64,000 nucleotides of DNA from an uncultured Melioribacter sp. (GCA_964484755.1 CAZAGH010000003.1:15157-79156), one strand, 5' to 3'; positions 4,878 through 64,000 are shown, numbered from the stretch's first letter. Notes: generated from the sequence alone by a model not told the origin. Made by a program: numbers and translations.

Positions 4878-4878
4878 T

Positions 4879-4896: not shown

Positions 4897-4908
4897 GCTG
4901 GCACAAGT

Positions 4909-6441: not shown

Positions 6442-6465
6442 CGTTACTCACTTACGCATCTTGAC

Positions 6466-9543: not shown

Positions 9544-9566
9544 CTTTACCTGTCCTGACCACTACC

Positions 9567-10556
9567 ATGGATTACAAACTCGCCGGAGTTGATATCAAAG
9601 CTGGGGAAGAGCTTGTTGATGATATCAAGCCCTTTGTCAAAGCCACTCGGACCCCCGGTGTACTCAGTGAGATCGGCCTTTTCGGAGGCTTCTTTGATGC
9701 ACGATTCCCGGATCATGAACATCCCGTTTTGGTCGCGAGCACTGATGGTGTTGGCACGAAGCTCAAAGTGGCTGTCATGGCTGGCGTTCACGATACTGTG
9801 GGCCAGTGTCTTGTTAACCACTGCGTGAACGACATCCTAGCCTGTGGCGCACGGCCGCTCTTCTTTCTGGATTACTTTGCCACTGGCCGTCTTGAGCGCG
9901 GTGTCGCTCGTGATGTGATCAAGGGTGTTGCCCAGGCATGCGCCGAGAATGGTGCTGCACTTCTTGGCGGTGAAACAGCCGAGATGCCCTCGATCTACGC
10001 CGACGGCGATTATGACATGGCAGGAACAATCGTCGGCGTTGTCGACAAGCCGCGTATTCTCAACGGGTCTCGTGTGGAGGTTGGTGATGTCCTCATCGGC
10101 CTTCCGTCGACAGGTCTGCATACCAATGGGTATTCCTTAGCTCGTGCTGCACTGTTTCCGACGTACTCAGTAGATCAATATGTTGATGAACTTGGTCAGA
10201 CGGTTGGGCAAGCATTGCTGGCTGTTCACAAGTCGTACCTCCATGCTCTAACACCAGTGCTCGATGCTGGACTTGCCACGGGGCTCTCCCATATCACGGG
10301 AGGTGGACTCGTTGGCAACACATCGCGTATTCTGCGGGAGGGTATGGGCCTCGAGATTGCATGGGGCTCGTGGGACGTTCCCCCAATCTTTAAACTGATT
10401 CAATCAGCTGGTTCGATCGCCGAAACTGAGATGCAACATGTGTTCAATCTTGGCGTTGGTATGGTCGTCGTGACACGACCTGATGATGCAGACTCAGTAA
10501 TGCGCCTGTTAGCTGATCATCATCCGTTCCGTGTTGGGGCCGTTGTTGCCTCCTAA
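9567..10556 (+). CDS. purM: Phosphoribosylformylglycinamidine cyclo-ligase (AIR synthetase)
   Basis: MDYKLAGVDIKAGEE.., DGVGTKL and GGETAEMP motifs. Start placed at the internal ATG at 9567. Confidence 0.95.
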   Translation: MDYKLAGVDIKAGEELVDDIKPFVKATRTPGVLSEIGLFGGFFDARFPDHEHPVLVASTDGVGTKLKVAVMAGVHDTVGQCLVNHCVNDILACGARPLFFLDYFATGRLERGVARDVIKGVAQACAENGAALLGGETAEMPSIYADGDYDMAGTIVGVVDKPRILNGSRVEVGDVLIGLPSTGLHTNGYSLARAALFPTYSVDQYVDELGQTVGQALLAVHKSYLHALTPVLDAGLATGLSHITGGGLVGNTSRILREGMGLEIAWGSWDVPPIFKLIQSAGSIAETEMQHVFNLGVGMVVVTRPDDADSVMRLLADHHPFRVGAVVAS

Positions 10557-10561
10557 CCGGT

Positions 10562-26992: not shown

Positions 26993-28999
26993 GTGAAACA
27001 CGTACGCGCCATCGTTCGCTGCTATGCTGCCCTGATATTGTGCTTGGGCTTATGTGCTGCCGAACTTCTAGCACAGATGCCGTCCGCGAAGAACAAGATC
27101 ACATTTGCGCCAATTGCCCCGGTCAGTGGGCGCGCGGGCGACACCGTTGAGATCGTTGTTTCGGCCAAGATTGCCAAACACTGGCACAGCTACGGTCTCA
27201 CTCCTGCCGTAGGACCCGACGGATTGGGTCCCGAGGCAACTGTCGTCACTGTCTCACCTAAGTCAGTTCTCAAGATGATTGGTAAGCCCCGTTTCACCAA
27301 GGGGGCGCATACGGCATTTGACAAGACATGGGAAACAAACGTTGAGGAGCTCTCAGGCAGCATTGAACTGCGCATCCCCGTGCGCCTCTCGCCTGCACTG
27401 CAAAAGGGACCGCAGAAGGCCAGCGTGAACTTCCTCATGCAACTCTGCGACACATCGGCCTGCCTGCCGTCAGAGGACATGCCGCAGGATGTGTCCATTA
27501 CGGTAACTGACGTAGCAGCCAGCACGGCTCTTCCGCTCGAGGATACAACGGAGTCAGCACCTGCTGGTGGTCAAAAAAAGGCTTCGGAAACTGTTGTTGC
27601 TCCCATGGATACGCAGCAGGAGATCGAAGTAGAAAAGAGCAAGGGGCTCCTGAGCTTTTTCCTCTATGCCATGGGAATCGGCTTTCTGGCGTTGCTCACA
27701 CCATGCGTCTTCCCGATGATTCCAATCACCGTGTCGTTCTTTACGAAGCGCCACGAGAAGACCAAAGGCTCTGGCCTGCGCGATAGTGTGCTTTTCGGTG
27801 TTGGCATCATTTCGACATTCACTGCAGTGGGCATCATTGCCTCAATCCTGTTCGGCGGAACGGCCGTGCAGGACTTAGCGGCTAACCCATGGTTGAATCT
27901 TGGTATTGGCTTGTTATTCATGGCCTTGGCATTCAATCTCTTTGGCTCATTCGAGATTCAAGTTCCTGTGTCGATCATGAACGCACTCAACAAGAAGTCG
28001 CAAGGCGACGGTGTGTTCTCCGTTCTGCTCATGGGGCTAACGTTCTCGCTTACCTCGTTTACCTGCACGGTGCCTTTTGTTGGCACGCTTCTACTGAGTG
28101 CTTCGGGAGGCGATTACCTTTACCCAGCTGTCGGCACGCTTGGTTTCGCCACAGCATTTGCGATTCCGTTCGTTGTGCTTTCCATGTTCCCTTCGCTACT
28201 TGTGCGTCTACCCCGCGCTGGCGGTTGGATGAACAACCTGAAAGTGGTGATGGGCTTTCTCGAGATCGCCGCAGCGATCAAGTTTTTCTCCACTGCCGAA
28301 TTCATATTTGGACTCGGTCTGCTACCGCGTGAGGTCTTCCTCGCGGTATGGGCCGCTGTCTGTCTGCTGATCGTGCTCTACATCTTGGGCACCTACCAGC
28401 TTACGCTTGATACTCCTGTTGAACGCATCGGCGGCCTACGTGCACTCTTTGCCGTGGTCTTCGCAACACTTGGTCTCTGGTTTGCCGCAGGCATGCTGGG
28501 TAAGCCCCTTGCCGCTGATCTCGAAGCTCTTCTGCCGCCCGAAAACTATCATGAGCTTCTTGCGCAGATGAATGGTGCGCCTGTTATGGCATCCACATCG
28601 CAGACACCCACAACGGAAGCAGCTGATGCACATAGCGGACTTGTTTGGCTGAACAACCTAGACGAAGCAAAGAAGATCGCTACACGAGAAGGTAAGCCGA
28701 TCTTCATCGACTTTACTGGATTTGCTTGTGTGAACTGTAGGCTTATGGAGAAAGATGTTTTCCCAAGACCTGAGGTCGTTGAGCAGTTCAAGAAATTCGT
28801 TCTCGTGCAGCTCTATACCGACAGAAAGACGGAGCCCTACATCACAAACCAGAATATTCTGAAGACCTACGGCACGGTGGCCAATCCGTTGTATGTGATG
28901 CTCAAGCCCGACGGTACGTACGTGGCACAAACCGGCTTCCAAACGCAGTTCCGTTCCAATCCGGGTCTGTTTGTAGCATTCCTGCAGAAGGCACTCTAA
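26993..28999 (+). CDS. dsbD: Thiol:disulfide interchange protein DsbD-like
   Basis: Signal peptide, an N-terminal domain, a multi-TM core with CVFPMIPIT, and a C-terminal thioredoxin-like domain with CVNC. GTG start. Confidence 0.8.
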   Translation: MKHVRAIVRCYAALILCLGLCAAELLAQMPSAKNKITFAPIAPVSGRAGDTVEIVVSAKIAKHWHSYGLTPAVGPDGLGPEATVVTVSPKSVLKMIGKPRFTKGAHTAFDKTWETNVEELSGSIELRIPVRLSPALQKGPQKASVNFLMQLCDTSACLPSEDMPQDVSITVTDVAASTALPLEDTTESAPAGGQKKASETVVAPMDTQQEIEVEKSKGLLSFFLYAMGIGFLALLTPCVFPMIPITVSFFTKRHEKTKGSGLRDSVLFGVGIISTFTAVGIIASILFGGTAVQDLAANPWLNLGIGLLFMALAFNLFGSFEIQVPVSIMNALNKKSQGDGVFSVLLMGLTFSLTSFTCTVPFVGTLLLSASGGDYLYPAVGTLGFATAFAIPFVVLSMFPSLLVRLPRAGGWMNNLKVVMGFLEIAAAIKFFSTAEFIFGLGLLPREVFLAVWAAVCLLIVLYILGTYQLTLDTPVERIGGLRALFAVVFATLGLWFAAGMLGKPLAADLEALLPPENYHELLAQMNGAPVMASTSQTPTTEAADAHSGLVWLNNLDEAKKIATREGKPIFIDFTGFACVNCRLMEKDVFPRPEVVEQFKKFVLVQLYTDRKTEPYITNQNILKTYGTVANPLYVMLKPDGTYVAQTGFQTQFRSNPGLFVAFLQKAL

Positions 29000-47862: not shown

Positions 47863-48282
47863 ATGCCAACCCAGGTCGTCGATGTAGTTTGGCGAAATGA
47901 TCTCACGTTTGATGCACATCAGCAGGGGCGGACATTCACGATTATGTCGTCGCCGCATGAGGATCCTGATGGCACTGCTGTATCGCCGAAACAGCTCTTA
48001 CTGACCGGCCTAGCTGGCTGCACGGGACTTGATGTAGCCTCGTTACTGCCCAAGATGCGCGTATACTTTAGCTCACTAAAGGTTGTTGTCGAAGCCACTC
48101 TAACTGAAGACCACCCACGGACATATGCAACGATGCATATGATCTACGAGATTGGTTGTAGCGAAGACGACAGGGAAAGCGCGGAACGAGCCGTTGAACT
48201 ATCAGTTACAAAGTACTGTGGCGTTCATGCGATGCTGGAGAAGGCCTCGCATATCACCCATGAAGTGCGGATCGTAGCATAG
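47863..48282 (+). CDS. OsmC-family protein
   Basis: The size, the GCTGLD motif and the YCGV motif are characteristic of OsmC/Ohr-like proteins. Confidence 0.7.
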   Translation: MPTQVVDVVWRNDLTFDAHQQGRTFTIMSSPHEDPDGTAVSPKQLLLTGLAGCTGLDVASLLPKMRVYFSSLKVVVEATLTEDHPRTYATMHMIYEIGCSEDDRESAERAVELSVTKYCGVHAMLEKASHITHEVRIVA

Positions 48283-48904
48283 TGTCAACGTGCTCATATG
48301 GAGCATACCCATTCGAGAGCAGATGAACATTGTCGCCGATCTCGAGAAGCATGGTCGGGAAGCCCCCTATGCCGAGAGATGCAACATATTCGAACTCGTC
48401 GGCTACGGCATCACTGATCTCAGGGGAGTTCATGAGCATGATAAACTCGTCCGGGTTCAAACCAGCCTCGCTGGCGAGCACACGATAGGTCGACTCAGCG
48501 TTCATATCCAGTCCATCGGCATAAAGCGCACGCTGTAGGCGATGACTAAACGCGATATGATTGCTTGGCTGCATGGCTCGCATGGCCTCAAGCGCTCTGG
48601 CAGGGGGCTCACTGTCGAGAACAACGTCCTTTCGGTTCAGCAGCCCATGCAGGAACGCTTCACCAAAGGTTACACCTGTAGTCTCTTCCACACGGGCGCG
48701 AGCGCCCCGAATGAAATCCGACATCTCGGAGAGTGCTTGAATGTTGTCTCCTGTGACCATGCCGCCAGCGTAGACGACTACGTCAAGGTGCTCAGACCAT
48801 TCCTCTTCAATGCGGGATACGACGGGACCAAACCCATAGCACCACCCGCACAGAGTGTCTTGGAAATAGTGAAGCGTAGGACGCTCAATGTGCTCGTTGG
48901 TCAT
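48254..48904 (-). CDS. DsbA-like thioredoxin-fold protein
   Basis: CGWC active-site motif near the N-terminus ([13 protein letters not shown]). ATGA overlap with the icd stop. Confidence 0.65.
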
Positions 48905-50136: not shown

Positions 50137-50180
50137 TCTGCCTGTGTGCAATTAAAAGGTGATAACGTTGTGACGAACAG

Positions 50181-50999
50181 CTACAATGCAACCGCAATTC
50201 CTGCGGTTAGGAGCGAAATGTTGTACCTGTTGATGAAGTACGATCTTGCAGGCCTTCCTGTCGAGCCCTGCCATGTTTGAGGGTCAAACACCGGCGTAAG
50301 CGGATACGAATACCCGACGTTGAGATCAATGCCTCGGATCAAACCCAAATCCCGGAAGAGCCTCACTCGTAGCGAACCATGAGCGTTGAATACGAAACTG
50401 TTGTATGCAGAAAGTGACGAGGTTGTATCAATTCGTGTCCGCGAACCATTTTCAAACATCAAGTTTTCTGGAAAGTCAAGCATCTCCGTTTGATGAAACT
50501 CTGTCGATGCGATGTAGTAGGCATCCGGACCAATACCGATCCAAAGCCAGTCTGTGAGCTCGTACTCTACCGTCAGGTGCACCGGCACCGTATGAAATGT
50601 CAGGTCAAGTTCATGCTTGAAGACTGCGTCAACATCTTTGCCTACACCCTGATCGTATACGGGCTGCGTAGAAAATGAAGTGTACGTTACCGGCAAGATC
50701 TGATAGCCTACTCTCGTACTGAGGCGCAGTCCATCATTTGACAAAGGGAAACTACCTCCCAGCTGAACGCCGTAGCCAATACCAGTTGAGTTTTCGAACC
50801 CTAAGCAGCAGTTCTCTATCGGTGGCAATGAATTAAAGTCTACATCGTGAAAAGCGTTCGTACCAAAAAGGTTGATCGACCATTCCGTGGAAGCATTCGC
50901 TGGCGATTCAGTCTGCACAGTGTCGTTCGACACTTGCGCGAATGCAATCATCGTACCAAGCAAGAAGACAGTAGTGAGAGCGAGGATTTGCTTCATCAT
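50181..50999 (-). CDS. Module A gene 3: predicted outer-membrane beta-barrel protein with a conserved FNSLPPIENCC motif
   Basis: Signal peptide MMKQILALTTVFLLGTMIAFAQ, an alternating-hydrophobic strand pattern to the C-terminus, homology to 57050..57973, and an ATGA overlap with the upstream stop. Confidence 0.7.
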   Translation of the reverse strand: MMKQILALTTVFLLGTMIAFAQVSNDTVQTESPANASTEWSINLFGTNAFHDVDFNSLPPIENCCLGFENSTGIGYGVQLGGSFPLSNDGLRLSTRVGYQILPVTYTSFSTQPVYDQGVGKDVDAVFKHELDLTFHTVPVHLTVEYELTDWLWIGIGPDAYYIASTEFHQTEMLDFPENLMFENGSRTRIDTTSSLSAYNSFVFNAHGSLRVRLFRDLGLIRGIDLNVGYSYPLTPVFDPQTWQGSTGRPARSYFINRYNISLLTAGIAVAL

Positions 51000-51904
51000 G
51001 GTAGCTTTAGAAGAGTCGTGCGAGCAGTGTTGTCTGCCGAAACAAATGTTACCGTGTAAGTCCCAGCTGGGATCACGGGCAGGTCCACGGTGACCAGTGG
51101 CCACTGAGCGTTAGCTTCGATACCAAGCTTATGCACAACAATGTTGCCGTGCATATCGGTGATCATAACGGTTCCGGTTACCGATTCTTCCGAGTACACG
51201 CGCAATCCTACACTTGACCCCGTAACAGGATTCGGCGCAACAAGTATTGATGGTTTCCCTGTGGACTTCACAAGGCGCGTATTGCCATATGTCGTGCAAA
51301 GGCCCTGCAGAGTCACAGAACCAGGCGTTGATCGCGTAAACTGGCGGGGAACCGCCGTCCAACGAAACGACTCGACGCGCACTGCACTCATGGTATCGTT
51401 GCCGAGTAGTGCACGAAACACGAGTGTTGTGAGTTTGCCTGACTGCCCCGAAGCTTTGCCCGTAACAGTTATGGTGTGATAGTCGCCGTTGTCTTCGATC
51501 TTATCGAAAACAAGTGGAGCAAGGACTGTGCGATTAAACGCGAGCTTTAGCTCCCACTCACGTTCGACACCGTCCTGAAAAAAGGCACACGGTGCACCAT
51601 ATCCAAGATCAAAGTTGAACGTGTCGCCGACCTGTTGAACCTGCTCCGGAACAACAATCGTTGTGTTCTCATAGCTCTGTTGATAGTAGTCACCTATGCT
51701 CTGCAATCCGCCAGCAAGCCGTGGTGTGGGCCCGACGTCTCCGAGCATCGGTTGGCCTATCGATACGCGCAATCCGAACTTGCCCGAAACGGGGCTGGCG
51801 ATTGCACCGCTTGTAACGCCGCCACCTGCGATGCCGTATTGTGCATGCACGCGGCCAACGAGCAGCATGACAAGGAGGAGAGATAAAATGATGTTTGTTC
51901 TCAT
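50996..51904 (-). CDS. Module A gene 2: secreted protein with a T9SS type-A C-terminal sorting domain
   Basis: The ATG at 51904 gives the signal peptide MRTNIILSLLLVMLLVGRVHAQ. Tail APNPVTGSS..VMITDMHGNIV..IPAGTYTVTF..LLKLP. Homologous to 57970..58887. Confidence 0.75.
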   Translation of the reverse strand: MRTNIILSLLLVMLLVGRVHAQYGIAGGGVTSGAIASPVSGKFGLRVSIGQPMLGDVGPTPRLAGGLQSIGDYYQQSYENTTIVVPEQVQQVGDTFNFDLGYGAPCAFFQDGVEREWELKLAFNRTVLAPLVFDKIEDNGDYHTITVTGKASGQSGKLTTLVFRALLGNDTMSAVRVESFRWTAVPRQFTRSTPGSVTLQGLCTTYGNTRLVKSTGKPSILVAPNPVTGSSVGLRVYSEESVTGTVMITDMHGNIVVHKLGIEANAQWPLVTVDLPVIPAGTYTVTFVSADNTARTTLLKLP

Positions 51905-51939
51905 GGTTGTTCCTTCATTATGACACAGCAATGCTGTCA

Positions 51940-54900
51940 TTACGTTGTTGCCATGAGAACCCACTTCTGGAGAGTTCCAGAGTAGATGAATGTGATGGAT
52001 TGGTTGTTGCCAATAGTCTTATTTGCTACACCGAGGATAAGACGATTGTCAGCCGCTGAGCGATTGTCTTCATTCTGGAAGGTAATGTTCTTACCAGACT
52101 GATTGATGATGATGATGACACGGCCATTCTCACCATTGTCAAAGCCGGTAATGTCGGATCCCTGACCAGCGTTGATCATGCGGAAGAACGCGTTATCGGA
52201 GATGTTGATGTTGTTGATTACCGTGCCCGCTCCACGGAGTAAGTCAATATCAATTGTTGTACCCTCAGTCAGTACGAACTTTCCGATGTTGCTTGATGGA
52301 TTTTCAGCCACCCACTTATCGGTAGCTGCGTCATAGACGAGAGCAAATCCGTCTTGCAATGTCAAAGGTGATGTGATCTGCTTGCCACCAATTGTCGAAG
52401 CATCAGCAGAAAACGTTGCCGGCTTCCATGTATTAGCAGTTGCATCCCATGTGAGCACTTGATTGTTGGTTGGAGCCGTTGCTGCTACTGCGCGGCCCTG
52501 AAGACCATCAACCGTTGGATTCGGATATGTACCATTGAGATCACCACCTGCTGTTCCACCTGGAGCAACACCGCTGATGGTTACGTTGTTGGCTGCCGTT
52601 ACGCGACCTTGCGCGTCAACTGTGAATGAACCTACTTGTGTTGCTGTGCCGTACTGGCCTGCCGTGACGGCAGTGTTTGAGAGCTTAGCACTTGTTACCG
52701 AACCGTCAGCAATATCTGCCGTGCCCACAGCTCCGTCAAGTATCGATGTGGATGTGACCGCCCCTGTAGCGAGAGTCGGATTCGGATACGTACCAGTGAG
52801 AGCGCCGCCCGCACTTCCGCCTGGCGTAACACCGGCAATCGTGATGTTCGCAGCAGCTGTTATGCGACCCTTCGAGTCAACGGTAAACGAACCAACTTCA
52901 GTGGCAGTACCATACGAACCGGCGGCAACACCCGTTGTGCTGAGCTTCGCACTGGTGATCGCGCCGTCTGCAACCTTTGCAGTCGTTACGGCACCGTCAG
53001 CAAGATCTGCGGTTGCTACCGAACCGTCAATGATGTTTGCTGATCCAACAGAACCATTGGCGAGCGTTGGATTAGGGAACGATCCTGTGAGCGCACCACC
53101 AGCTGCGCCAGTTGGTGAGGCTCCTGTGATGGTGACATTCGTTGCACTTGTAATGCGACCCTTAGCATCGACCGTGAACTGACCAACCTGTGTTGCTGAT
53201 CCATAGGTGCCCGCTGTGACCAACGTGTTCGCAAGCTTAGCGTCAGTTACAGCGCCATCCGCGAGGTCGGCTGTGCCAACCGCTCCATCTGCGATAGAGG
53301 AAGAGCTTACAGCTCCCGTAGACAGTGTTGGGTTGGGGTACGTTCCTGCAAGTGCGCCGCCCGCTGCACCTGTAGGTGCTGCACCTGTGATGGTAACATT
53401 TGTTGCGCCAGTTATGCGACCCGACGCATCAACAGTGAACTGCCCAACCTGCGTTGCTGATCCGAACGTTCCAGCATTAACACCTGTGGCTGCCATCTTT
53501 GCAGAGGTCACCGCGCCGTCACCGAGGTCAGATGTTGCAATCGATCCATCTGTGATGTTGCCTGATGCTACCGAGTTGCTGGCAAGCGATGGGTTTGGAT
53601 AGCTGCCTGTTAGTGCACCACCGGCAGATCCACCAGGAACAACACCAGAAATCGTTACGTTCTGCGCCGCTGTTATGCGTCCTGCAGCGTCCACAGTAAA
53701 CTGTCCTACCTGGCTGGACGTACCATACGTGCCGAACAAAACGCCAGTGCTTGTCATCTTAGACGACGTCAGCGTTTCGTCTGCAATATCCACTGCTTGG
53801 ATCGAACCATCGGCAATGCGTGATGAAGTAACAGAGCCAACTGCAAGAACTGGATTAGGGTAATTTCCAGTAAGTCCGCCGCCTGCGCGACCTGTTGGTT
53901 CAGCTGCCGCTATTGTTACGTTCCCTGCACTTGTGATACGTCCAGCAGCATCAACGGTGAATTGGCCGACCTGAGTGGCTGAACCGTATATGCCAGCTGT
54001 AACACCAGTGTTGGAAAGCTTTGCTGAGTTTACGATTCCATCCCCAAGATCAGCAGTTGCGATCGAGCCGTCTGTGATGTTGCCAGAGCTTACCGAATTG
54101 GCTGCGAGCGTTGGGTTAGGATATGTTCCTGTGAGTGCTCCGCCAGCGGAACCGCCAGGTGTGGTACCCGTGATTGTGACGTTTCCGGCAAAGGTGAGGC
54201 GACCCTGTGAATTGACGGTGAACTGACCAACCTGTGTTGCACTGCCGTACGTTGCAGCAGTTACACCAGTTGATGAGAGCTTCGCATCATTAACAGCACC
54301 ATCGGCAATGTTTGTTGTTGAGATACCGCCCGCTGCGATGTCAGAAGATGTGATTGTACCGTCGATGATGTTTGCGGAAGCGACAGCGTTATTCGCCAGG
54401 GTAGGGTTCGGATATGTGCCAGAGAGAACGCCACCTGCCGAGCCGCCCGGTGTAACACCTGAAATGGTTACGTTTGATGCCGTTGTAAGACGTCCCTGCG
54501 CATCAACCGTAAATGCACCAACTTGCGTCGAAGATCCATAAGAACCTGCAGTGACCGTCGTGTTGGCCAGCTTGTTAGCCGTAACAGCCCCATCTGCCAG
54601 ATCGGCTGATGTTACTGAACCATCTGCGATCGCAGAAGAAGTAACTGCACCAGCTGCTAGTGTAGGATTGGGATATGTACCGGAGAGAACACCGCCCGCT
54701 GGGCCGCTTGGAGAGATTCCGGAGATGGCAACGTTTGTTGCTGATGTGATGTGACCACGAGCATCTATCGTTATCTGCGGCACAAGCAGGCTCGAACCAT
54801 ACGTGGCTGCTGTTACACCCGATAGGTAGTGCTTTGGAGCTGTGATTGCACCATCAGCAATGTCGTTAGTAGAAATCGTGAGATCTTGAATGTTGGTCGA

Positions 54901-56793
54901 CGTTACAACTCCCGTTCCAAGACTTGGATTAGGATATGTACCTGAGAGAACACCTCCCGCTGCACCACCTGGAGTTGTGCCGCTGATCGTGATGTTCTGC
55001 GCTGTTGTTACGCGGCCTTGAGCATCAACTGTGAACTGACCAACTTGTGTCGCGTTTCCGTACGTGCCTGATGTAACGCCTGTGGTTGAGAGCTTCGACG
55101 ATGGAATTGCACCGTCGGCAAGGTCTGAGCCTTGGATCGAACCATCAACGATGTTGAGCGATGTTACAGAGTTATTCGCAAGTGTTGGGTTCGGATATGA
55201 TCCCGAGAGAGCGCCGCCAGCCGGACCCGATGGTGCTGTTGGTGCGATTGGAATGGAAAATGCTGTGACGACGCGACCTGATGAGTCAACAGCCACAACT
55301 GCTGAATGCGTTGACGAGCCATATTGGCCAGGATTTACTCCCGTTGGTACAAGCTTCTGCGAGGTAACAGCGCGGTCAACGATTTTATCTGTCGATACCG
55401 CGTTACTTGCAAGATCAACATTCGCAACAGTGCCGTCCAGAATTTTGCTTGATGTTACAGCTGCATTCTTGATGTTGTCTGTACCAACGACATCGAGTGC
55501 CAGCTGTGGGTTTGGATATGTTCCGGTAAGGTCGCCGCTGGCAGGACCAGTAGGGGGCGAGCCAGCCATTGGGACATTCTGGATCGTAACGATTCGACCC
55601 GACTTATCGACATACATTTGAGGGATCAGGGTAGACGAGCCATAAAGCCCGGCATCCAGTGGCATCTGTGAAAGCTCATCACTGCCAATAGAGCCATCCT
55701 TAATGTTGGCAGCCGTGATCGTATTTGGGGCGATCTTTTGGCTTGTAACAGCAAAGTCTGCGAGCTTCTGTTCGGTTACAGCCTTGTCGGCAATCTTCGT
55801 TGTCGTGATGGCAGCACCAGAAATCTTTTCCGATGTTACCGCACCCTCTGCAAGTTTTGGTGTTGTTACGTTGAAGTCAACAAGCTTCGATGTCGTAACG
55901 CTATTGTCGGCAAGCTCAGTTGTCGTTACCGCTGCACGCGCAATCTTCTCAGTCGTGATGACGCCGTTCTTGATCGTTGGTGCCGGATAGAAACCTGTGA
56001 GTTCTCCACCAGCCGTTCCTCCAGGCGGTACGCCAATGATTGGAACTTGTTCGGCAAACGTCACACGGCCCTGCTCGTCTACACGCAGCACTGTACTGGT
56101 GTTCGATGAGCCAAAAGGACCAAGTGGGCCTTGATGAATCTCCTGCAGTGCGGCTGCACCAACAGTGTTATCGTTGATCTTCAGAGTAAGGGCGTTGAGT
56201 GCACCAGAAACGGTAACGTCTGATCCTGTGCTTGATGCTGCCCCCTCTACGCGAGCAGCATTAATCGACTTCGTACCTGTGGCATTGATAGAGTTGATCA
56301 GAACATCACCCATGTTGTTGGCCGGGTTGTTGATCGACTGACGTATAGAATCAGCGACCTGCGGCGTTACAGCGCTTGCAATCTCAGCAGACTTAGCATT
56401 CAATGCGTTGAGAGCGTAGGGAACGGCTGTGAGGAACACCCGCGGTGTCAGCTCCGGTTGGCTGTTGATCGAGGTGCCAAGCCATAAGAATTGATCGAAT
56501 GAAACATCCAGTGGAGTCTTGTCGCCAAGGATAACGTTGAATACGCCACCATTGGTCGTTACTGTGTGACGCTCTTTCCAGATCCCGGTGCCGCCAAGCG
56601 CAACATTATATAGCGTAAGGTCAACTGTCCAGACGCTATCGCAGACTGGAATGCCGGTAGTGTCGATCAACACCCCTTGGTATGTGATCTTCTTTGGAAT
56701 GCCTGCCTGCGCAGATGCGCCAGTAGACGCTGCTGCGATAACAACCGCGAGCATGAGCGCCATGAACAGGCCACGTACTATCGTCTGTGCCAT
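51940..56793 (-). CDS. Module A gene 1: giant (1617 aa) secreted repeat protein, fibre-like
   Basis: The ATG at 56793 gives the signal peptide [28 protein letters not shown]. It is followed by an N-terminal ~100-aa domain, 13 repeat modules and a 189-aa C-terminal domain. Confidence 0.85.
52510..56142 (-). repeat. Coding repeat array of giant protein 1: 13 modules of 87+10k residues, with nested decapeptide repeats
   Basis: Hand-counted spacings between (Y/F)P(N/A)P motifs are 157, 107, 87, 87, 87, 97, 87, 87, 87, 87, 97, 87. Confidence 0.85.
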
Positions 56794-56940
56794 ATGAAAA
56801 ACCCAACAGTGTAGATATACTTTTGTTTCGATGAGACGAGGCGCAGAGCGTGTATGTCGGGCCGTTAACCCCTTGTCGAAGGCACTCTTGCGCACAAGAC
56901 GCAAAATTATCACGAGCCAGTCTAGTAGCGCTCGCACGGA

Positions 56941-56968
56941 TGTGGATAACCATAGTTACTTGTCCACA
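56941..56968. promoter_or_regulatory. Inverted pair of DnaA-box-like 9-mers upstream of giant gene 1
   Basis: TGTGGATAA (56941-56949, the reverse complement of TTATCCACA), a 10-nt spacer, then TTGTCCACA (56960-56968). Confidence 0.35.
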
Positions 56969-56986
56969 ATTCTGATAAATGATTAT

Positions 56987-57021
56987 AAAAAAGCGGGACA
57001 TCACTCAAGGTGATGCCCCGC
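56987..57021 (-). terminator. Rho-independent terminator after module B
   Basis: On the minus strand: gcggggcatca-ccttgag-tgatgtcccgc (one mismatch) followed by TTTTTT. It lies 28 nt downstream of the stop at 57050. Confidence 0.75.
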
Positions 57022-57049
57022 ATACAAAAGCAGCTCTGACGTTGAGGGG

Positions 57050-57973
57050 TTAGAAAACCAAGCCGAACCCAAACGTCAACATTGATATTGAATATGAATC
57101 AATAAAGAACGTTGCAGGTGGATTACCGTACATACCTCTCCATGTTTGTGCAGAGAACAACGGTTGCAGTGGCAGCGAATATCGCCCGAAGATATCGACA
57201 CCAACCGCCCCCTGTTGCTTTTCAATTAATCGGATGCGCGCAGAACCTGTGGCATTGAAAACGACAGCATTCTGGCCGCGAACGTATCCATTCTTGTCCA
57301 AACGCACGCGTGTGCCCGTCTCGAAGACAAGGTTGGATGGTTCTTCTAGCGTTTCTGTTTGGTGAAAGGAGCCCGTAGCATAGAAGTAGCCGTCGAGCCC
57401 GAATCCAAGGTAGAAACTGCTAAGAACGGGATACTCGAGTCGTGCACCAAACGTTACGGTTGTCCAGGTTACGTCTAGTGTATGACGAAAGAGGGCGTCG
57501 CCAGAGACAACACCACCAGTGAACGCCTTTTCCGTAGAGTACGAATCAAACGACACGGGCATGTTAACATAGCCGATGTGTGGTGTGATCGTAAGGCCAT
57601 CAGCGGTAAGGGGCGTTGTGTATCCAAGCTCAAAGCCGAATCCCAGCCCCTTGCTGTCACTGAACCCTGTGCAGCAGTTTTCGATAGGAGGAAGCGAGTT
57701 GAATGATGCATTGTGCGTAGCAAGGTTGCCTACGAACGATACCGTAATCTCGTCATGTGAATGAGCGACGCCATGGTCATGCACGTGTTGATGCTCGTGC
57801 ACATGTCCGTATGCATGCGAATGTTCATGTGGGTGAGTATCGCTTGCTGAATGCTGGTGTGCGTGACCGTGGTTGTGATCGTGCACATGCATGGTGTCGG
57901 ACTGCTGCGCGGAAGCCGATGTCATGCAAAGCAAATACGCCGCCATAATTGTAACTGAGAAGCTTGATATCAT
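57050..57973 (-). CDS. Module B gene 3: predicted outer-membrane beta-barrel protein with a His-rich N-terminal tract and the FNSLPPIENCC motif
   Basis: Signal peptide, 19 His within 45 residues after it, a beta-strand pattern ending in a C-terminal Phe, and an ATGA overlap with the upstream stop. Confidence 0.7.
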   Translation of the reverse strand: MISSFSVTIMAAYLLCMTSASAQQSDTMHVHDHNHGHAHQHSASDTHPHEHSHAYGHVHEHQHVHDHGVAHSHDEITVSFVGNLATHNASFNSLPPIENCCTGFSDSKGLGFGFELGYTTPLTADGLTITPHIGYVNMPVSFDSYSTEKAFTGGVVSGDALFRHTLDVTWTTVTFGARLEYPVLSSFYLGFGLDGYFYATGSFHQTETLEEPSNLVFETGTRVRLDKNGYVRGQNAVVFNATGSARIRLIEKQQGAVGVDIFGRYSLPLQPLFSAQTWRGMYGNPPATFFIDSYSISMLTFGFGLVF

Positions 57974-58887
57974 GGCAGCTTCACCATAGTAGTTCGTACC
58001 ACATCGTTTTCCGTAAAGAGAGCCACCGTGTACGAACCAGCAGGGATCACCTGAAGCTCAACGGTTGTCATCGGCCATGTTGATCCTGCCTCCACTCGGT
58101 CTGCTGTGTAGACGATGTTCCCGTGAATGTCTGTCACGACAAGCGTTCCAACTTGCTGTTTATCTGAGTATGTGCGCATCGTGAACGATGAGCCCGTTAC
58201 AGGATTTGGTGCAATGAGGATCGCCATCTTGCTTGGGTCTTTCAGCAAACGCGTAGAGCCATAGGTGTTGCATAGACCACGAAGAACGACGGTCCCTTGC
58301 ATGGACTGAACATACTGACGTTGCGCATCTACCCAGCGGAATGATTCAACTCGGACATCTGTGACGGAGTCGTTTCCAAGGCGCCCCATCATCGGGATGC
58401 GGGTTAGCACTCCATTGTTTGATGTTGCACTGCCTGTAAGTGTGATCGTGTAACGATCCCCATCATCAACAAGAGAATCATAGCGAAGGGGCTCGAGCAC
58501 TGTTCGGTTGAAACTGAGCTTGAGTTCCCAGTCGCGGTCCACCACCGTGCTCTGAAAAAGTGCGCACGATGCACTGTAGCCAACTTCAAGAGCAAACGTA
58601 TCGCCAATTTGCTTGACAACACTGTCGACTCTGAGAAGCGTTGATTCGTAGTACTTCTGAACGGCGTTACCATGGCTGATGATGCCGGAGCGGACGATCG
58701 GGTCGAGACCCGTTTCGCCAACAATTGGCAGACCAACAGCCCCCTGCATGTGGTAGTCACCAAGTTGGATCGCAGTTGTCGCGCCACTGGTCACAACCCC
58801 GCCCACGACTGTCTGACCCTGCATCGGGGATCCCACGATGCCGAGAAGACAACCAATCACGAGTATGTGTTTCATTGTTGTTTTCAT
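57970..58887 (-). CDS. Module B gene 2: secreted protein with a T9SS type-A C-terminal sorting domain
   Basis: Signal peptide MKTTMKHILVIGCLLGIVG. Tail APNPVTGSS..VVTDIHGNIV..IPAGSYTVAL..MVKLP. Confidence 0.75.
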   Translation of the reverse strand: MKTTMKHILVIGCLLGIVGSPMQGQTVVGGVVTSGATTAIQLGDYHMQGAVGLPIVGETGLDPIVRSGIISHGNAVQKYYESTLLRVDSVVKQIGDTFALEVGYSASCALFQSTVVDRDWELKLSFNRTVLEPLRYDSLVDDGDRYTITLTGSATSNNGVLTRIPMMGRLGNDSVTDVRVESFRWVDAQRQYVQSMQGTVVLRGLCNTYGSTRLLKDPSKMAILIAPNPVTGSSFTMRTYSDKQQVGTLVVTDIHGNIVYTADRVEAGSTWPMTTVELQVIPAGSYTVALFTENDVVRTTMVKLP

Positions 58888-58906
58888 CCTTGATACTGTG
58901 ATTGGA

Positions 58907-61900
58907 TTAGGTAGTGGCCATGAGGACCCACTTGCCCAGAGTACCAGAATAGATGAATGTTATCGACTGGTTGTTGCCGATCGTCTTGTTTGCTACGCCT
59001 AGAATGAGCTGGTTATTAGCTCCAGAACGACCATCCTCGTTTTGGAAGGTGATGTTCTTACTTGACTGGTTGATGATAATGATCACGCGACCGTTCGCAC
59101 CATTTGCAAAGCCAGTTATGTCGGAACCTTGGCTTGCATTCGTCATCCGGAAGAATGCGTGATCAGAAATATTAATGTTGTTGATTACAGTTCCGGCTCC
59201 GCGTAACAAGTCGATGTTAATCGCAGTACCCTCACCCAAAATCAACTGCTTAATGTTACCTGTTGGATTTTGTGGAACCCATTTATTCTGAGCCGCATCG
59301 TAGGCAAGAGCATCACCGTCATTAGGATTGAGGATAGGATCGACTGCAATACCCCCGATTGACGATGCTGTAGCTGTTACCGAAGCTGGCTTCCACGTCT
59401 GAGCAGTATTGTCCCATGTGAGAACCTGATTGTTCGTTGGTGCCGTTGCTGCAACCGCACGACCCTGCAATCCATCGACTGTCGGGTTTGGATAGGTGCC
59501 GTTTAGATCGCCACCGGCAGTGCCACCCGGAGTTACTCCTGTGATCGTAACGTTCTGTGCAGCAGTGATGCGGCCGTTAGCATCAACAGTGAATTGGCCT
59601 ACCTGTGTTGCCGAGCCGTATGTGGCTGCGGTAACGCCAGTCGTTGAAAGCTTTGCAGCTGTTACCGCACCGTCAGCAATAAGTGGGGCAGTGATAGCGC
59701 CTGTGGCAATGTCGCCTGTTGCGACCGCACCATCAACGATGTTGCTTGAGTTGATGGTGTTCGCAGCAATTGATGGGTTCGGATATGTTCCAGTGAGATC
59801 ACCACCAGCCGCTCCACCTGGAGTTACACCAGTGATCGTGATGTTGGCAGCCTGTGTCACGCGACCCTTTGAATCGACTGTGAACTGGCCAACCTGCGTT
59901 GCCGAGCCGTATTGTCCGAGGATTACACCTGAGTTCTCAAGCTTGTCGGCAGTTACAGATCCTGGAGCAAGCTTTGCAGCTGTTACAGAACCGTCAGCGA
60001 TCTTGGCGGTTGTGACAGCACCGTCGGTCAACTTGGCCGTTGATACTGCACCATCTGCAAGCTTAGCACCGGTGACGTTACCATCTTGGATTTTCGTCGT
60101 GGTAACAGCATTGTCGCCAAGTTTAGCCCCAGATACTGCGCCGTCAGCGAGCTTTGCAGTTGTGACGTTGCCATCTGCAATCTTCGCTGTCGTGACCGCA
60201 TTGTCAGCAAGGTCTACCGTTGCAACTGTTCCGTCGAGGATCATTGGCGATGTAACAGCACTGTTCGCGATGGTAGGGTTAGGATACGTTCCCGTCAGAG
60301 ACCCTCCAGCTGCGCCAGATGGTGCAACGCCAGAGATAGTAACGTTTTGAGCTGATGTGATTCGACCCTTTGAATCCACTGTGAACTGACCAACCTGTGT
60401 TGCAGAACCATACTGACCTGTGATCACACCGGAATCATCAAGTTTGTCCGGTGTAACTGAACCAGGTGCGAGCTTGGCGCTAGTGACTGAGCCATCGCCA
60501 AGCTTGGCTGTAGTAACAGCGCCATCGGCGAGCTTTGGTGTTGTGACGTTCCCATCGGCGATCTTCGGCGTCGTAACGGCGTTGTCAGCGAGCTTAGGGG
60601 TCGTAACGTTTCCATCAGCAATTTTTGGTGTTGTTACAGCATTATCAGCTAGATCGATCGTTGCCACTGTTCCGTCGAGGATCATTGGCGACGTTACAGC
60701 ACCCGTTGCGATAGTTGGGTTAGGGTAGGTGCCTGTGAGCGATCCACCAGCTGCGCCTGCAGGAGCAACACCTGCGATCGTGATGTTTGCGGCTTGGACA
60801 ACGCGACCCTTCGAATCGACAGTGAACTGTCCAACTTGTGTTGCTGAACCGTACTGTCCAACAATAACAGCGGTATTCTCCAGCTTGTCGCCAGTTACTG
60901 AACCAGGAGCGAGCTTCGCAGCCGTTACAGATGCGTCAGCAAGTTTTGCTGTTGTTACGTTACCGTCTTGAATCTTCGCCGTCGTTACGGCATTGTCTGC
61001 AAGCTTCGCATTCGTCACATTGCCATCGGCAATCTTCGGTGTTGTTACAGCATTGTCTGCAAGATCGACTGCCGCTACAGTGCCATCGAGAATCATACCT
61101 GATGTTACCGCACTCGGAGCAATGGATGGGTTAGGGTACGTGCCCGAGAGTGACCCACCAGCTGCACCACCTGGTGAAACGCCTGCAATAGTAATGTTCG
61201 CTGCTTGCGTTACACGCCCCTTAGAATCAACAGTGAACTGACCGACTTGCGTAGCAGAACCATACTGACCAACTACGACGGCTGTGTTCTCGAGCTTGTC
61301 TCCAGAGACTGCTCCTGGAGCGAGCTTATCTGCAGTAACAGATCCATCAGCCAGTTTTGCTGTTGTGACATTCCCATCTTGAATCTTTGCTGTTGTTACT
61401 GCATTGTCACCGAGTTTCGCATTCGTGACAGCGCCGTCTGCGAGCTTTGGAGTTGTGACATTAGCATCAGCAATCTTCGCTGTTGTAACGGCATTATCTG
61501 CCAGATCTACCGTAGCAACTGTACCATCAAGAATCATTGGTGATGTAACAGCGCCATTAGCGATTGATGGATTTGGATACGTTCCTGAGAGGGAACCACC
61601 GGCTGGTCCGGCTGGAGTAACTCCTGCGATTGTTACGTTTTGAGCCGACGTGATACGCCCTTTAGAATCGACTGTGAACTGACCAACCTGCGTGGCAGTA
61701 CCGTATGTACCGGCAGGAACGCCTGAATTCTCAAGCTTATCAGCTGTGACCGATCCCGGAGCGAGCTTCGCGGCAGTGACCGAGCCGTCGGCGATCTTGT
61801 TTGTTGTAACTGCGCCGTCAGCAAGCTTCGCTGCCGTCACGCTGCCGTCTGTGATCTTATTCGTCGTGACGGCACCGTCTGCAAGCTTCGCGCCAGTTAC

Positions 61901-64000
61901 GTTGCCATCCTGGATCTTTGCCGTCGTAACAGCACCATCAGCAAGCTTAGCAGCTGTCACATTTCCGTCGAGAATTTTTTGCGTTGTTACAGCATTGTCT
62001 GCAAGGTCTGCTGCAGAAACTGTACCGTCCTGAATCATTGATGAGTTGACTGCATTCGGAGCAATTGATGGGTTGGGATATGTTCCTGATAGGGAGCCGC
62101 CGGCTGGGCCACCTGGAGCGACACCACTGATTGTGATGTTTGCAGCCTGCGTAACGCGGCCCTTTGAGTCAACAGTAAACTGACCCACTTGTGTTGCCGA
62201 ACCGTATTGGCCGAGCACAACGCCTGAGTTTTCCAGCTTGTCTGCAGTGACCGAACCAGGGGCTAATTTGGCTGCCGTAACTGATCCGTCTGCCAACTTG
62301 TTCGTTGTAACTGCACCGTCAGCAAGCTTAGCCGTAGAAACAGCACCATCGGCGAGCTTTGCACCTGTGACGTTTCCATCTGCAATTTTAGTTGTTGTTA
62401 CTGCGTTGTCTGCGAGGTCTGCAGCAGATACGGTTCCGTCTTCGATCATCATTGAGCTAACTGCACTCGGGGCAATTGTTGGGTTCGGATATGATCCTGT
62501 GAGTGAACCACCAGCCGGGCCACCGGGTGTTACACCAGTGATCGTCACATTTTGTGCAGCCGTGATGCGACCCTTCGAGTCCACTGTGAATTGTCCAACT
62601 TGAGTTGCGTTACCATACGTTCCTGCACCCACGGCTGTATTGGCGAGCTTTTCTGCCGTGACAGCACCATCGGAAAGCTTTGAAGAGCCCACAGCGCCAT
62701 CAGCAAGTTTGGCAGCGGTTACTGCGCCATCAGCAAGCTTCTGTGTGCCGATTGCGTTATCTGCAAGCTTCGGGCCAGTAACTGAACCGTCCTGGAGTTT
62801 CATTGTTGAAACTGCGTTGTCAGCCAACTTCTGATTTGTCACGTTGCCATCGGCGATCTTCGTTGTTGTAACCGCATTATCAACGATGAGTTCGTTAGTG
62901 ATCGTGTTTGGTGCAATATCAACCGTAGCGATTGTGCCGTTAAGGATCTTGGCAGATGTTATGGCATCTGGAGCTATCAGGGGATTAGGATATGTCCCTG
63001 TTAGGTCGCCACCAGCAGCACCGACAGGGGGCATGCCCGCGATCGTGACGTTTTGAGCTGAAACGATGCGTCCCTTTGCGTCGACAGTGAACTGTCCAAC
63101 TTGCGTTGGAGAACCATACGTACCAACTCCAACACCGCTGTTCTCAAGTTTAGCAGCTGTGATTGCTCCGTCAGCGATCTTCTGAGCTGTTACAGCAAAG
63201 TCGGCAATCTTTGGTGTGGTTACAGCACCGTTGGCAAGATCAATGTCCTGGATTGTTCCATCAAGGATCTTCGTTGATGTTACCTTACCTGTGCCAATGG
63301 TTGGATTCGGGAACGAGCCTTCAAGGTCGCCACCTGCGATAAGTCCGCCAGGTGCAATCGTGACGTCAACCTCACGAATGTTCGTTATGCGTCCAGCCTG
63401 ATCGACGGTAAACTGTGGGACCTTTGATGACGCGCCATATGTAGACGGGAATATCGCCGGCATGGTCGACATCTTCGTGCTCGTAATCGCTCCGTCGGCA
63501 ACTTTCGGTGTCGTTACTGCGTCATTTGCCATATCCTGAGTCTTCACTTCACCATCCTTGATTTTAGGACTGGTGACCGCATCATCAGCAAGGTCGACTG
63601 TGTTGACGTCACCGTCTTTGATTGCGGCACTCGTAACCGCATCGTTCGCGATCTTGGGAGCGGTAATGGCTCCGTCCGCGATGTTTACTGTCGTTGCCGC
63701 ACCTGGAGCGAGCTTAGCAGCTGTTATAGAGCCATTAGGAATCTTGTCTGCCGTAACTGCGCCATCGCGAATAGTCGGATTTGGGTAGGTGCCTGTAAGG
63801 TCACCACCTGCGGCTCCGCCTGGGCTAACCCCTGAGATCGGAACTTGTCCTGCGCGAACTACACGGCCCTGCGGGTCAATCGTGATCACGGCCGACTCTG
63901 TGGCAGATCCGAACGGACCTATAACGCCGGGGTGAATCTCTTCGAGTTCATCTGCACCAACAGTGTTTGGCCTCAATGTGAGGTTCATACTATCCAAGCT
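58907..64000 (-). CDS. Module B gene 1: giant repeat protein, fibre-like; the N-terminus lies outside the window
   Basis: The frame stays open to base 64000. The first residues in the window align with residues ~250 onward of giant 1. There are 11 repeat modules and the same 189-aa C-terminal domain. Confidence 0.85.
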   Translation of the reverse strand, partial: SLDSMNLTLRPNTVGADELEEIHPGVIGPFGSATESAVITIDPQGRVVRAGQVPISGVSPGGAAGGDLTGTYPNPTIRDGAVTADKIPNGSITAAKLAPGAATTVNIADGAITAPKIANDAVTSAAIKDGDVNTVDLADDAVTSPKIKDGEVKTQDMANDAVTTPKVADGAITSTKMSTMPAIFPSTYGASSKVPQFTVDQAGRITNIREVDVTIAPGGLIAGGDLEGSFPNPTIGTGKVTSTKILDGTIQDIDLANGAVTTPKIADFAVTAQKIADGAITAAKLENSGVGVGTYGSPTQVGQFTVDAKGRIVSAQNVTIAGMPPVGAAGGDLTGTYPNPLIAPDAITSAKILNGTIATVDIAPNTITNELIVDNAVTTTKIADGNVTNQKLADNAVSTMKLQDGSVTGPKLADNAIGTQKLADGAVTAAKLADGAVGSSKLSDGAVTAEKLANTAVGAGTYGNATQVGQFTVDSKGRITAAQNVTITGVTPGGPAGGSLTGSYPNPTIAPSAVSSMMIEDGTVSAADLADNAVTTTKIADGNVTGAKLADGAVSTAKLADGAVTTNKLADGSVTAAKLAPGSVTADKLENSGVVLGQYGSATQVGQFTVDSKGRVTQAANITISGVAPGGPAGGSLSGTYPNPSIAPNAVNSSMIQDGTVSAADLADNAVTTQKILDGNVTAAKLADGAVTTAKIQDGNVTGAKLADGAVTTNKITDGSVTAAKLADGAVTTNKIADGSVTAAKLAPGSVTADKLENSGVPAGTYGTATQVGQFTVDSKGRITSAQNVTIAGVTPAGPAGGSLSGTYPNPSIANGAVTSPMILDGTVATVDLADNAVTTAKIADANVTTPKLADGAVTNAKLGDNAVTTAKIQDGNVTTAKLADGSVTADKLAPGAVSGDKLENTAVVVGQYGSATQVGQFTVDSKGRVTQAANITIAGVSPGGAAGGSLSGTYPNPSIAPSAVTSGMILDGTVAAVDLADNAVTTPKIADGNVTNAKLADNAVTTAKIQDGNVTTAKLADASVTAAKLAPGSVTGDKLENTAVIVGQYGSATQVGQFTVDSKGRVVQAANITIAGVAPAGAAGGSLTGTYPNPTIATGAVTSPMILDGTVATIDLADNAVTTPKIADGNVTTPKLADNAVTTPKIADGNVTTPKLADGAVTTAKLGDGSVTSAKLAPGSVTPDKLDDSGVITGQYGSATQVGQFTVDSKGRITSAQNVTISGVAPSGAAGGSLTGTYPNPTIANSAVTSPMILDGTVATVDLADNAVTTAKIADGNVTTAKLADGAVSGAKLGDNAVTTTKIQDGNVTGAKLADGAVSTAKLTDGAVTTAKIADGSVTAAKLAPGSVTADKLENSGVILGQYGSATQVGQFTVDSKGRVTQAANITITGVTPGGAAGGDLTGTYPNPSIAANTINSSNIVDGAVATGDIATGAITAPLIADGAVTAAKLSTTGVTAATYGSATQVGQFTVDANGRITAAQNVTITGVTPGGTAGGDLNGTYPNPTVDGLQGRAVAATAPTNNQVLTWDNTAQTWKPASVTATASSIGGIAVDPILNPNDGDALAYDAAQNKWVPQNPTGNIKQLILGEGTAINIDLLRGAGTVINNINISDHAFFRMTNASQGSDITGFANGANGRVIIIINQSSKNITFQNEDGRSGANNQLILGVANKTIGNNQSITFIYSGTLGKWVLMATT
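59477..64000 (-). repeat. Coding repeat array of giant protein 2: modules of 87+10k residues with expanded decapeptide runs
   Basis: Hand-counted spacings between (Y/F)PNP motifs are 158, 107, 167, 137, 167, 147, 137, 147, 167, 97. Confidence 0.85.

Follow-up and report, generated by a model that had tools for sequence, protein, structure and literature searches.

We analyzed a stretch of 64,000 nucleotides from an uncultured Melioribacter sp. (GCA_964484755.1, CAZAGH010000003.1:15157-79156), termed the window below, whose far end carries two head-to-tail copies of a three-gene module on the minus strand. In both copies, gene 1 encodes a giant fibre protein, gene 2 a smaller protein with a predicted C-terminal domain (CTD) of type IX secretion systems (T9SS), and gene 3 a beta-barrel of the outer membrane. 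The two modules and their six reading frames are found as the first-pass annotation of this DNA had described them. Together with their features they are:

58907..64000, minus strand: fibre B (gene 1 of module B), 1696 amino acids in the window, with the reading frame open at the window's end
57970..58887, minus strand: gene 2 of module B, 305 amino acids, secreted beta-sandwich with a type-A-like T9SS CTD
57050..57973, minus strand: gene 3 of module B, 307 amino acids, outer-membrane beta-barrel with a His-rich stretch at about 57746..57901
56987..57021, minus strand: hairpin and T-tract resembling an intrinsic terminator, between modules B and A
51940..56793, minus strand: fibre A (gene 1 of module A), 1617 amino acids, ATG at 56793
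56710..56793, minus strand: signal peptide of fibre A, hydrophobic, ending in ASA before Q
about 56383..56709, minus strand: N-domain of fibre A, about 105 amino acids, matching NF053851 and thus resembling that of mosaic adhesive trimers (MATs)
about 52516..56121, minus strand: 13 repeat units of fibre A, of DUF5907/decapeptide type
51943..52515, minus strand: C-terminal domain of fibre A, about 190 amino acids, with a Phage_depo_C beta-sandwich at about 51973..52212
50996..51904, minus strand: gene 2 of module A, 302 amino acids, with a signal peptide (residues 1-21), a Gly-rich segment (22-79), a beta-sandwich (about 80-215) and a type-A CTD (222-302, nucleotides 50999..51241)
50181..50999, minus strand: gene 3 of module A, 272 amino acids, signal peptide and outer-membrane barrel of about 10 strands

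Fibre B is truncated at its 5' end. Judging by the full-length ortholog in the related locus L012, its first 185-190 residues or so, with the signal peptide and the N-domain among them, lie beyond position 64000. In both modules gene 2 follows the fibre gene after a short gap (from the coordinates, 35 nt for A and 19 nt for B), and both gene 2/gene 3 junctions read ...CCATGA..., with the stop codon of gene 2 overlapping the start of gene 3. The hairpin between the modules (57021..56993) has a 12-bp stem with eight GC pairs and a 5-nt loop, is followed by TTTTTT and outranks every other terminator-like site in this region. Downstream of module A the icd gene starts with an ATG at 50136, 44 nt past the stop of gene 3. 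Thus, the gaps and ATGA overlaps, the hairpin with its U-tract and the distance to icd are all confirmed as annotated. No terminator-like site was found between module A and icd (50137..50180). The module lies directly upstream of icd in every syntenic genome, and transcriptional read-through into icd is possible.

Modules A and B are true, diverged paralogs, whose homology is far above chance. The gene 3 products share 42% identity (E 4e-70), the gene 2 products 46% (E 1e-97) and the C-terminal 286 amino acids of the fibres 74% (E 9e-147), which bears out the clear pairwise homology noted before. Third-codon identity between the modules is 25-55% and hence near saturation, indicating that the duplication is old and neither recent nor an assembly artefact. 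Moreover, the two-module arrangement beside icd is repeated in the independent assemblies L002, L003, L006, L007 and L012. Over the last 90 amino acids the two fibres are 88% identical, while the synonymous sites are saturated. Recent gene conversion was considered as the cause of these near-identical tips and rejected, since third-codon identity stays at 25-55% even where the proteins are 100% identical. The identity of the tips therefore reflects purifying selection.

A phage-tail-fibre-like protein and its two envelope partners

All three proteins carry Sec signal peptides, as read from the sequence. Judged by its domains, the giant is a phage-tail-fibre-like protein, a point that is absent from the first-pass annotation. 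It matches tail-fibre families of PHROG with E-values of 5e-78 (fibre A) and 5e-187 (fibre B, phrog_892), and Pfam searches detect DUF5907 (51.5 bits in fibre B) and Decapeptide repeats in the fibres. The repeat units, 13 in fibre A and 11 of the YPNP type in fibre B, are marked by the motif G-G-x-L-x-G-x-Y-P-N-P. They are spaced by 87, 97, 107 or 157 amino acids in fibre A and by 97 to 167 in fibre B, and the 10-residue steps of this 87+10n pattern agree with the matches to DUF5907 and Decapeptide. Orthologous fibres are between 589 and 2086 amino acids long. In both tips the last 80 or so amino acids match Phage_depo_C (PF25692) with 27.4 and 34.2 bits, above the Pfam cut-off of 25 bits. Sequence searches of the PDB with the fibre tip and shaft returned nothing informative.

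It had been judged by eye that the giants carry neither a type-A nor a type-B CTD. Profile searches agree: five fibre C-termini were searched for T9SS CTDs of type A, B or C with TIGR04183, TIGR04131 and the other NCBIfam sorting-domain models, and for the type-B domain PF13585 (CHU_C) of Pfam, and none was found even at E ≤ 10.

At the other end of the fibre, the sole NCBIfam match of the N-domain is NF053851 (Bdello_MAT_N), which is detected in six out of six fibres with E-values from 2e-8 to 8e-5 (1.9e-8 for fibre A). In Bdellovibrio bacteriovorus this conserved N-domain follows the signal peptide in all 21 MATs, where it adjoins the cell surface and is presumed to bind some element of it that has yet to be identified (Caulton et al. 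2024, PMC10769870). The fibre N-domain of the modules has no match in 50,697 phage genomes, which agrees with a cellular anchor domain. It also holds the only cysteine of the mature fibre A of approximately 1,600 residues (Cys51, 56641..56643, in the motif GIPvCDS). This cysteine is kept in the A- and B-type fibres of the Kapaibacteria set and missing in the related locus L038.

The product of gene 2 is predicted to be a T9SS cargo with a type-A CTD. Its earlier description as T9SS-tailed is supported by TIGR04183 (cut-off 23 bits), which gene 2 of module A matches above the cut-off (28.9 bits) and gene 2 of module B just below it (21.3 bits). PF18962 scores 17-18 bits, below its cut-off of 27, and alignments show PNP, GxY and terminal K-L-P motifs to be conserved. 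The Sec signal peptide, read by eye, is MRTNIILSLLLVMLLVGRVHA followed by QY. It precedes a conserved Gly-rich stretch of approximately 60 amino acids, and in the AlphaFold2 model the predicted local distance difference test (pLDDT) is below 50 over residues 17-79. Fold searches with Foldseek recovered only generic sandwiches resembling immunoglobulin or fibronectin type III (Ig/FN3) domains, and sequence searches of the PDB gave nothing informative. A cohesin-like identity of the sandwich was considered and is not supported, since it came from a single match in a distant homologue (E 0.15) and both the PDB profile search and Foldseek gave generic Ig/FN3 folds only. Similarity to PorZ is confined to the CTD: the PorZ equivalog model NF052228, whose cut-off is 260 bits, gives scores of 13.8 and 11.4, and a PDB profile search reaches PorZ (5m11) with an E-value of 0.31. 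No PHROG family matches gene 2 or gene 3.

The combination of sandwich and CTD seen in gene 2 also ends an AT-rich WD40-repeat protein of 1265 amino acids (L032:1741-5538, L033:3874-7322; profile E 4.5e-20). We considered this protein as a Rosetta-stone fusion and rejected it, as it is without fibre or barrel parts; it therefore tells only that the gene 2 cassette is reusable on other T9SS cargo. Two further large secreted proteins are encoded at some distance from the modules, both on the plus strand. The first (30..3833) has 1267 amino acids and a type-A CTD that scores 33.8 bits with TIGR04183, above the cut-off, and the second (13222..17526) is an S8 subtilase of 1434 amino acids with FG-GAP repeats and a tail that shows a weak likeness (21 bits) to the CTD part of the PorZ model. 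Because the window thus encodes at least one further above-cut-off type-A CTD protein, a T9SS is presumed to be present in the host.

For the gene 3 product of module A, the AlphaFold2 model (pLDDT 76.4) shows 10 strand elements in approximately 235 residues. Its best folds in the PDB, found by Foldseek, are the 8-10-strand barrels OmpA, OpcA, OmpT, Pla, OmpW and OprG, with template modelling (TM) scores of 0.3-0.44, whereas FadL and TodX reach only 0.18-0.27. PorV and the PorP/SprF-like proteins, in contrast, are 14-strand barrels of the FadL type (PMC9143113). No model of PorP/SprF, PorQ or PorV matches gene 3. For the PorP/SprF models TIGR03519 and PF11751 this holds for both modules at E ≤ 0.1 and for the relatives P0023, P0027 and P0029 at E ≤ 10, in a search where the HMMER filters drop very weak matches. 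The barrels thus lie outside the PorP/SprF family, as had been suspected. Of the small-barrel families the window proteins match only PF13505, with 19.7 bits, and the relative P0029 scores 39.8 bits on PF13568 (OMP_b-brl_2), above the cut-off of 27. Gene 3 appears to be remotely related to the OmpA-like/PF13568 barrels and does not belong to PorP/SprF, PorQ or PorV.

An exhaustive profile search of 1.84 billion representative proteins found just seven at E ≤ 1e-30, so the gene 3 subfamily is small. It also returned hundreds of remote matches, with E-values from 1e-17 to 1e-12. The ones inspected are either further small barrels that stand alone or N-terminal barrels in proteins of 650-750 amino acids that have a C-terminal OmpA domain and match PF13568 weakly. 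Unlike the latter, gene 3 stands alone without an OmpA peptidoglycan-binding domain, and its subfamily is always linked to gene 2 and the fibre. The gene 3 product of module A contains the invariant loop FNSLPPIENCCxGF and ends in an aromatic or hydrophobic residue. Remote relatives (P0031, P0032, P0036 and similar proteins) likewise have an LPxxP(S/N)CC loop and a FENGxRxR motif. The vicinal Cys-Cys (50806..50811 in the window) and FENGxRxR are conserved over a large, apparently undescribed class of outer-membrane barrels of the Fibrobacteres-Chlorobi-Bacteroidetes (FCB) group. Disulfide anchoring between the fibre cysteine and the vicinal Cys-Cys of the barrel was downgraded as a candidate, since the CC loop belongs to this much wider barrel family and the fibre cysteine is missing in L038. 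Finally, the B-type barrels carry a His-rich stretch of approximately 50 amino acids with HxHxH repeats directly after the signal peptide. It is kept in orthologs (L002:3031-3960, L006:1922-2845) and found in none of the A-type barrels, and it may be a periplasmic metal-binding tail.

Linkage of the three genes and the fibre end they follow

The three genes form an evolutionary unit: wherever a related locus offers enough sequence, they are linked. Among 5.8 billion proteins, a word-indexed search found no more than 10-11 close relatives for each of the two partners, mostly nameless or annotated as 'hypothetical protein'; the two that bear an organism name come from metagenome-assembled genomes (MAGs) of Ignavibacteria. 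The order fibre, gene 2, gene 3 is present in all eight loci from species-representative genomes and, among the 11 loci of a metagenome scan, in the nine that are close. The same order is seen around the remote barrels P0023, P0024, P0027, P0029, P0030, P0034 and P0040, whose modules stand in other contexts, such as adjoining a histidine kinase, a GH92 enzyme or a TonB receptor. A co-occurrence of the three families in other genomes, which had been named as a check on the system, is therefore borne out in every related locus with room for it, distant contexts included. Gene 3 is always part of the operon-like unit of the fibre, though separated from the fibre gene by gene 2.

Two tandem modules are likewise found in a second lineage (L020, L029-L031), and some Kapaibacterium genomes have the B-type module alone at the same icd-adjacent site. 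In one organism that was recovered three times (L014, 8877-10624; L025 and L026, both 12084-13831), module A has decayed as a whole. Its fibre lacks a signal peptide and is cut to 442 amino acids, gene 2 is deleted, and of the barrel the last 135 amino acids, or half, are left. Module B of this organism is intact, with an unusually short fibre of 589 amino acids. The related loci are filed as MAGs of Ignavibacteria, Candidatus Kapaibacterium or Bacteroidota, the exception being L013, which is filed as Patescibacteria. On this 321-kb contig (JBIICY010000003.1), however, icd, dsbA and ftsZ are in the same synteny, and its module shares 70-80% identity with the modules of Kapaibacterium MAGs; the Patescibacteria label looks wrong. 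We found no description of the trio in the literature or the family libraries searched.

The strong PHROG matches and the phage-type tip domain would fit a remnant of a prophage, a tailocin or another phage-derived particle, with genes 2 and 3 as mere bystanders. We consider this highly improbable. The surroundings of the modules in the window are chromosomal, with icd, dsbA, a DEAD-box helicase, ftsQ, ftsA and ftsZ downstream, and this synteny is conserved across genomes. The upstream side of module B lies beyond the window; in the relatives L013 and L014 a fatty-acid desaturase, ybeY and a DUF494 gene are found there. In agreement with the first-pass annotation, no capsid, baseplate, sheath, integrase or other mobile-element or virion gene was found in the visible surroundings. 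Moreover, all three proteins have Sec signal peptides, the N-domain is missing from the phage genomes searched, neither gene 2 nor gene 3 was found in IMG/VR (2.9 million viral contigs), and the three-gene linkage is strict in many contexts, all of which argue against a viral remnant.

The DsbA-like oxidoreductase of this neighbourhood (48254..48904, minus strand) keeps its place, two genes downstream of module A, wherever the locus is syntenic, which is probably coincidental. A DsbD-type disulfide reductase is encoded elsewhere in the window (26993..28999, plus strand).

The relation of the partners to the two ends of the fibre was compared over 12 complete modules. The divergences of gene 2 and gene 3 form the tightest-correlated pair (Spearman 0.92). 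The last 90 amino acids of the fibre, in contrast, are the slowest-evolving part (mean identity 74%) and the least correlated with the partners. Single comparisons illustrate this. Between module A of the window and L006A, identity is 91% for the N-domain, 74% for gene 2 and 69% for gene 3, but just 72-74% for the C-terminal region, so that the tip is discordant. Compared to L002A, the values are 81% for the N-domain, 75% for gene 2 and 57% for gene 3, with 96-98% for the C-terminal region. In L018 the tip is 84-87% identical to that of the window, whereas gene 2 is only 35-39% and the barrel only 30% identical.

The most telling arrangement is that of L038 (positions 1-10818; GCA_003536035.1, DPZS01000251.1), in which one gene 2-gene 3 pair stands behind a row of three fibre-like genes. 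Two of them are full-length and have the same N-domain (profile E approximately 1e-23) but a C-terminal domain of another type; the third, which is upstream and 5'-truncated, has the same alternative C-terminus. The third fibre gene is broken by a run of N. The array looks like fibres that share one anchor pair. Because L038 swaps the C-terminus and keeps the N-domain and the pair, the conserved core of the system appears to consist of the N-domain, gene 2 and gene 3, with a tip that is exchangeable as in MATs. Thus, the comparative data link genes 2 and 3 to the N-domain of the fibre rather than to its C-terminus. This link, too, is absent from the first-pass annotation.

A putative surface fibre on a two-protein platform

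Profile, fold and co-occurrence results together support the earlier view of a dedicated fibre module of an undescribed variant, and we likewise infer that it functions in export or anchoring. Our favored reading, to which we give about even chances of being right, is that each module encodes an adhesive fibre of the cell surface, presumably trimeric, which is docked via its N-domain on a platform made of the gene 2 and gene 3 products, and that the sets A and B do not cross-assemble. The observed basis for it is the domain content, the signal peptides, the CTD, the barrel fold, the gene linkage, the evolutionary patterns and the lack of any occurrence on viral contigs.

According to this reading, gene 1 would encode a Sec-exported and presumably trimeric fibre that is built like a phage tail fibre, but has a cell-type N-domain related to that of the Bdellovibrio MATs in place of a virion-attachment domain. 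Its shaft, of variable length, would consist of DUF5907 knobs and decapeptide beta-helix repeats, and its distal tip would be a depolymerase-type beta-sandwich. The gene 2 product would cross the outer membrane via the T9SS, using its type-A CTD, and the gene 3 product, a barrel of approximately 10 strands, would be inserted in that membrane. Genes 2 and 3, which co-diverge and are probably translationally coupled, would form a 1:1 surface platform, with the sandwich protein on or beside the barrel. The fibre would be attached to it by docking of the N-domain, and its tip would stay free for binding a target. As for the fibre, which has no CTD, the route we favor across the outer membrane is co-export with the gene 2 product or a hand-over to it. 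The tandem duplication would then have given rise to two diverged sets of fibre and platform in one cell, which would not assemble with each other.

The partners might alternatively serve the other end of the fibre. Gene 2 could be an adaptor in trans, or a tip protein, that binds the C-terminal sandwich of the fibre, much as the phage proteins gp38 and Tfa, whose genes directly follow those of the tail fibres, bind the tips of fibres. It would lend its CTD for the passage of the folded trimer through the T9SS translocon, with gene 3 retaining the complex. It is in keeping with such a role that gene 2 directly follows the fibre gene at 19-35 nt, that it has a CTD and the fibre has none, and that the last 90 amino acids of the fibre are under exceptionally strong purifying selection. 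The Gly-rich segment of gene 2, which is conserved yet predicted to be disordered alone, moreover suggests that it folds when bound to a partner. Against this, gene 2 and the tip do not co-vary: gene 2 has diverged far more than the tip in L018, and in L006A it is concordant with gene 3 while the tip is discordant. In L038, where the fibres end in another type of tip domain, genes 2 and 3 are still kept together with the N-domain. To our knowledge, there is also no precedent for piggy-back export by the T9SS. An adaptor that acts at the tip therefore seems to us unlikely.

A giant surface protein whose gene is followed by that of a dedicated barrel recalls the type-B cargo proteins and their PorP/SprF genes (PMC12618676, PMC9143113), such as SprB and SprF of Flavobacterium johnsoniae or PG1035 and PorP of Porphyromonas gingivalis. 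There too, one genome can hold paralogous sets of cargo and partner, and the barrel is considered to be the surface anchor of its cargo. By this analogy the C-terminal sandwich of the fibre could be an unrecognized class of CTD, gene 3 its dedicated shuttle or anchor and gene 2 an accessory cargo. That the C-terminal 90 or so amino acids form a highly conserved beta-sandwich at the extreme end of the protein would fit this arrangement. We nevertheless regard it as improbable, more so than an adaptor at the tip. No T9SS sorting domain is detected in the fibres even at E ≤ 10, and the region instead matches PF25692, the C-terminal sandwich of phage depolymerases. Furthermore, gene 3 has approximately 10 strands and no PorP/SprF match, in contrast to the 14-strand FadL-type shuttles, and the fibres of L038 combine another C-terminus with the same partners. 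The modules also differ from the SprB/SprF arrangement in that an extra type-A CTD protein is encoded between the genes of the giant and the barrel.

Returning to the platform model, several observations weigh against it. The matches to NF053851, on which the MAT-like nature of the N-domain is based, are below threshold (22-34 bits, cut-off 60) and cover model positions 2-77 or so out of 162 only. The AlphaFold2 model of gene 2 is of low confidence (mean pLDDT 59.7) and leaves the conserved N-terminal 60 residues unmodelled. The vicinal cysteine pair and the loop motifs of the barrel are not specific to fibre modules, because they are shared with barrels of unrelated OmpA-C proteins. The fibre itself has no recognizable signal for export across the outer membrane, so that its exposure on the cell surface is assumed from the example of the MATs. 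Most importantly, the last 90 amino acids of the fibre are the most conserved part of the system, both between the paralogs and towards L018, which is unexpected for a distal tip. This conservation could mean that the domain is recognized by a conserved machine or partner. The anchor model does not account for the strong purifying selection on the tip.

The comparison with known systems places the modules between several of them. Like MATs, the fibres have a conserved beta-rich N-domain directly after the signal peptide and a phage-tail-fibre-like shaft, their C-terminal tip is exchangeable, as seen between L038 and the other loci and in the discordant L006A, and their genes are chromosomal and not prophage-borne. 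They differ from MATs in that their N-domain matches NF053851 below the cut-off and over the first half of the model only, that they come from a member of the FCB group that possesses T9SS cargo, that they lack an S74 chaperone-protease domain, and that the fibre gene is always followed by those of a CTD protein and a barrel. The pairs PorZ/PorQ and PorU/PorV also combine a CTD-bearing surface protein 1:1 with an outer-membrane barrel, and the ATGA overlap and tight co-divergence suggest a like pairing of gene 2 and gene 3. Unlike PorZ and PorQ, this pair is encoded with a fibre and duplicated, and hence not a single-copy core component; nor is gene 3 PorQ- or PorV-like, and gene 2 matches PorZ over its CTD only. 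The long tail fibres of phages (T4 gp37/gp38, Mu-type Tfa) share the repeat architecture, the C-terminal sandwich and a small gene directly downstream. Here, in contrast, a virion context is missing, every product is exported by the Sec route, and the downstream protein has a T9SS CTD and no similarity to gp38 or Tfa. Thus, the module resembles SprB/SprF and PorZ/PorQ in its putative function and MATs in its fibre, while none of its proteins could be assigned to PorP/SprF, PorZ or the type-B CTD cargo. What is new is the T9SS-linked accessory pair that is joined to a putative, phage-derived surface fibre.

A bolder extension, which we hold to be rather doubtful, is that the gene 2/gene 3 pair represents a new class of surface receptor for MAT-type N-domains and at the same time a new mode of the T9SS, in which a small type-A CTD protein would carry a folded, CTD-less trimer in trans and hand it over to a 10-strand barrel as its anchor. 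With interchangeable fibres of phage origin, freshwater Kapaibacteria might then recognize other cells, such as cyanobacteria, in whose company they have repeatedly been recovered, much as Bdellovibrio recognizes its prey by means of MATs.

Surface fibres resembling phage tail fibres have so far been characterized only in Bdellovibrio, where neither the anchor of the N-domain nor the export route is known. The linkage of such a fibre to two envelope proteins, one of them a predicted T9SS substrate, provides concrete candidates for how fibres may be mounted on a Gram-negative surface, and the module suggests that the T9SS could serve cargo without a CTD of its own. The sets of fibre and partners are duplicated and diverged and their tips are swappable, which together points to modular recognition and not to one lone adhesin. 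For the Kapaibacteria, an uncultured freshwater lineage related to the Bacteroidetes, this would offer a first functional handle on the biology of the cell surface.

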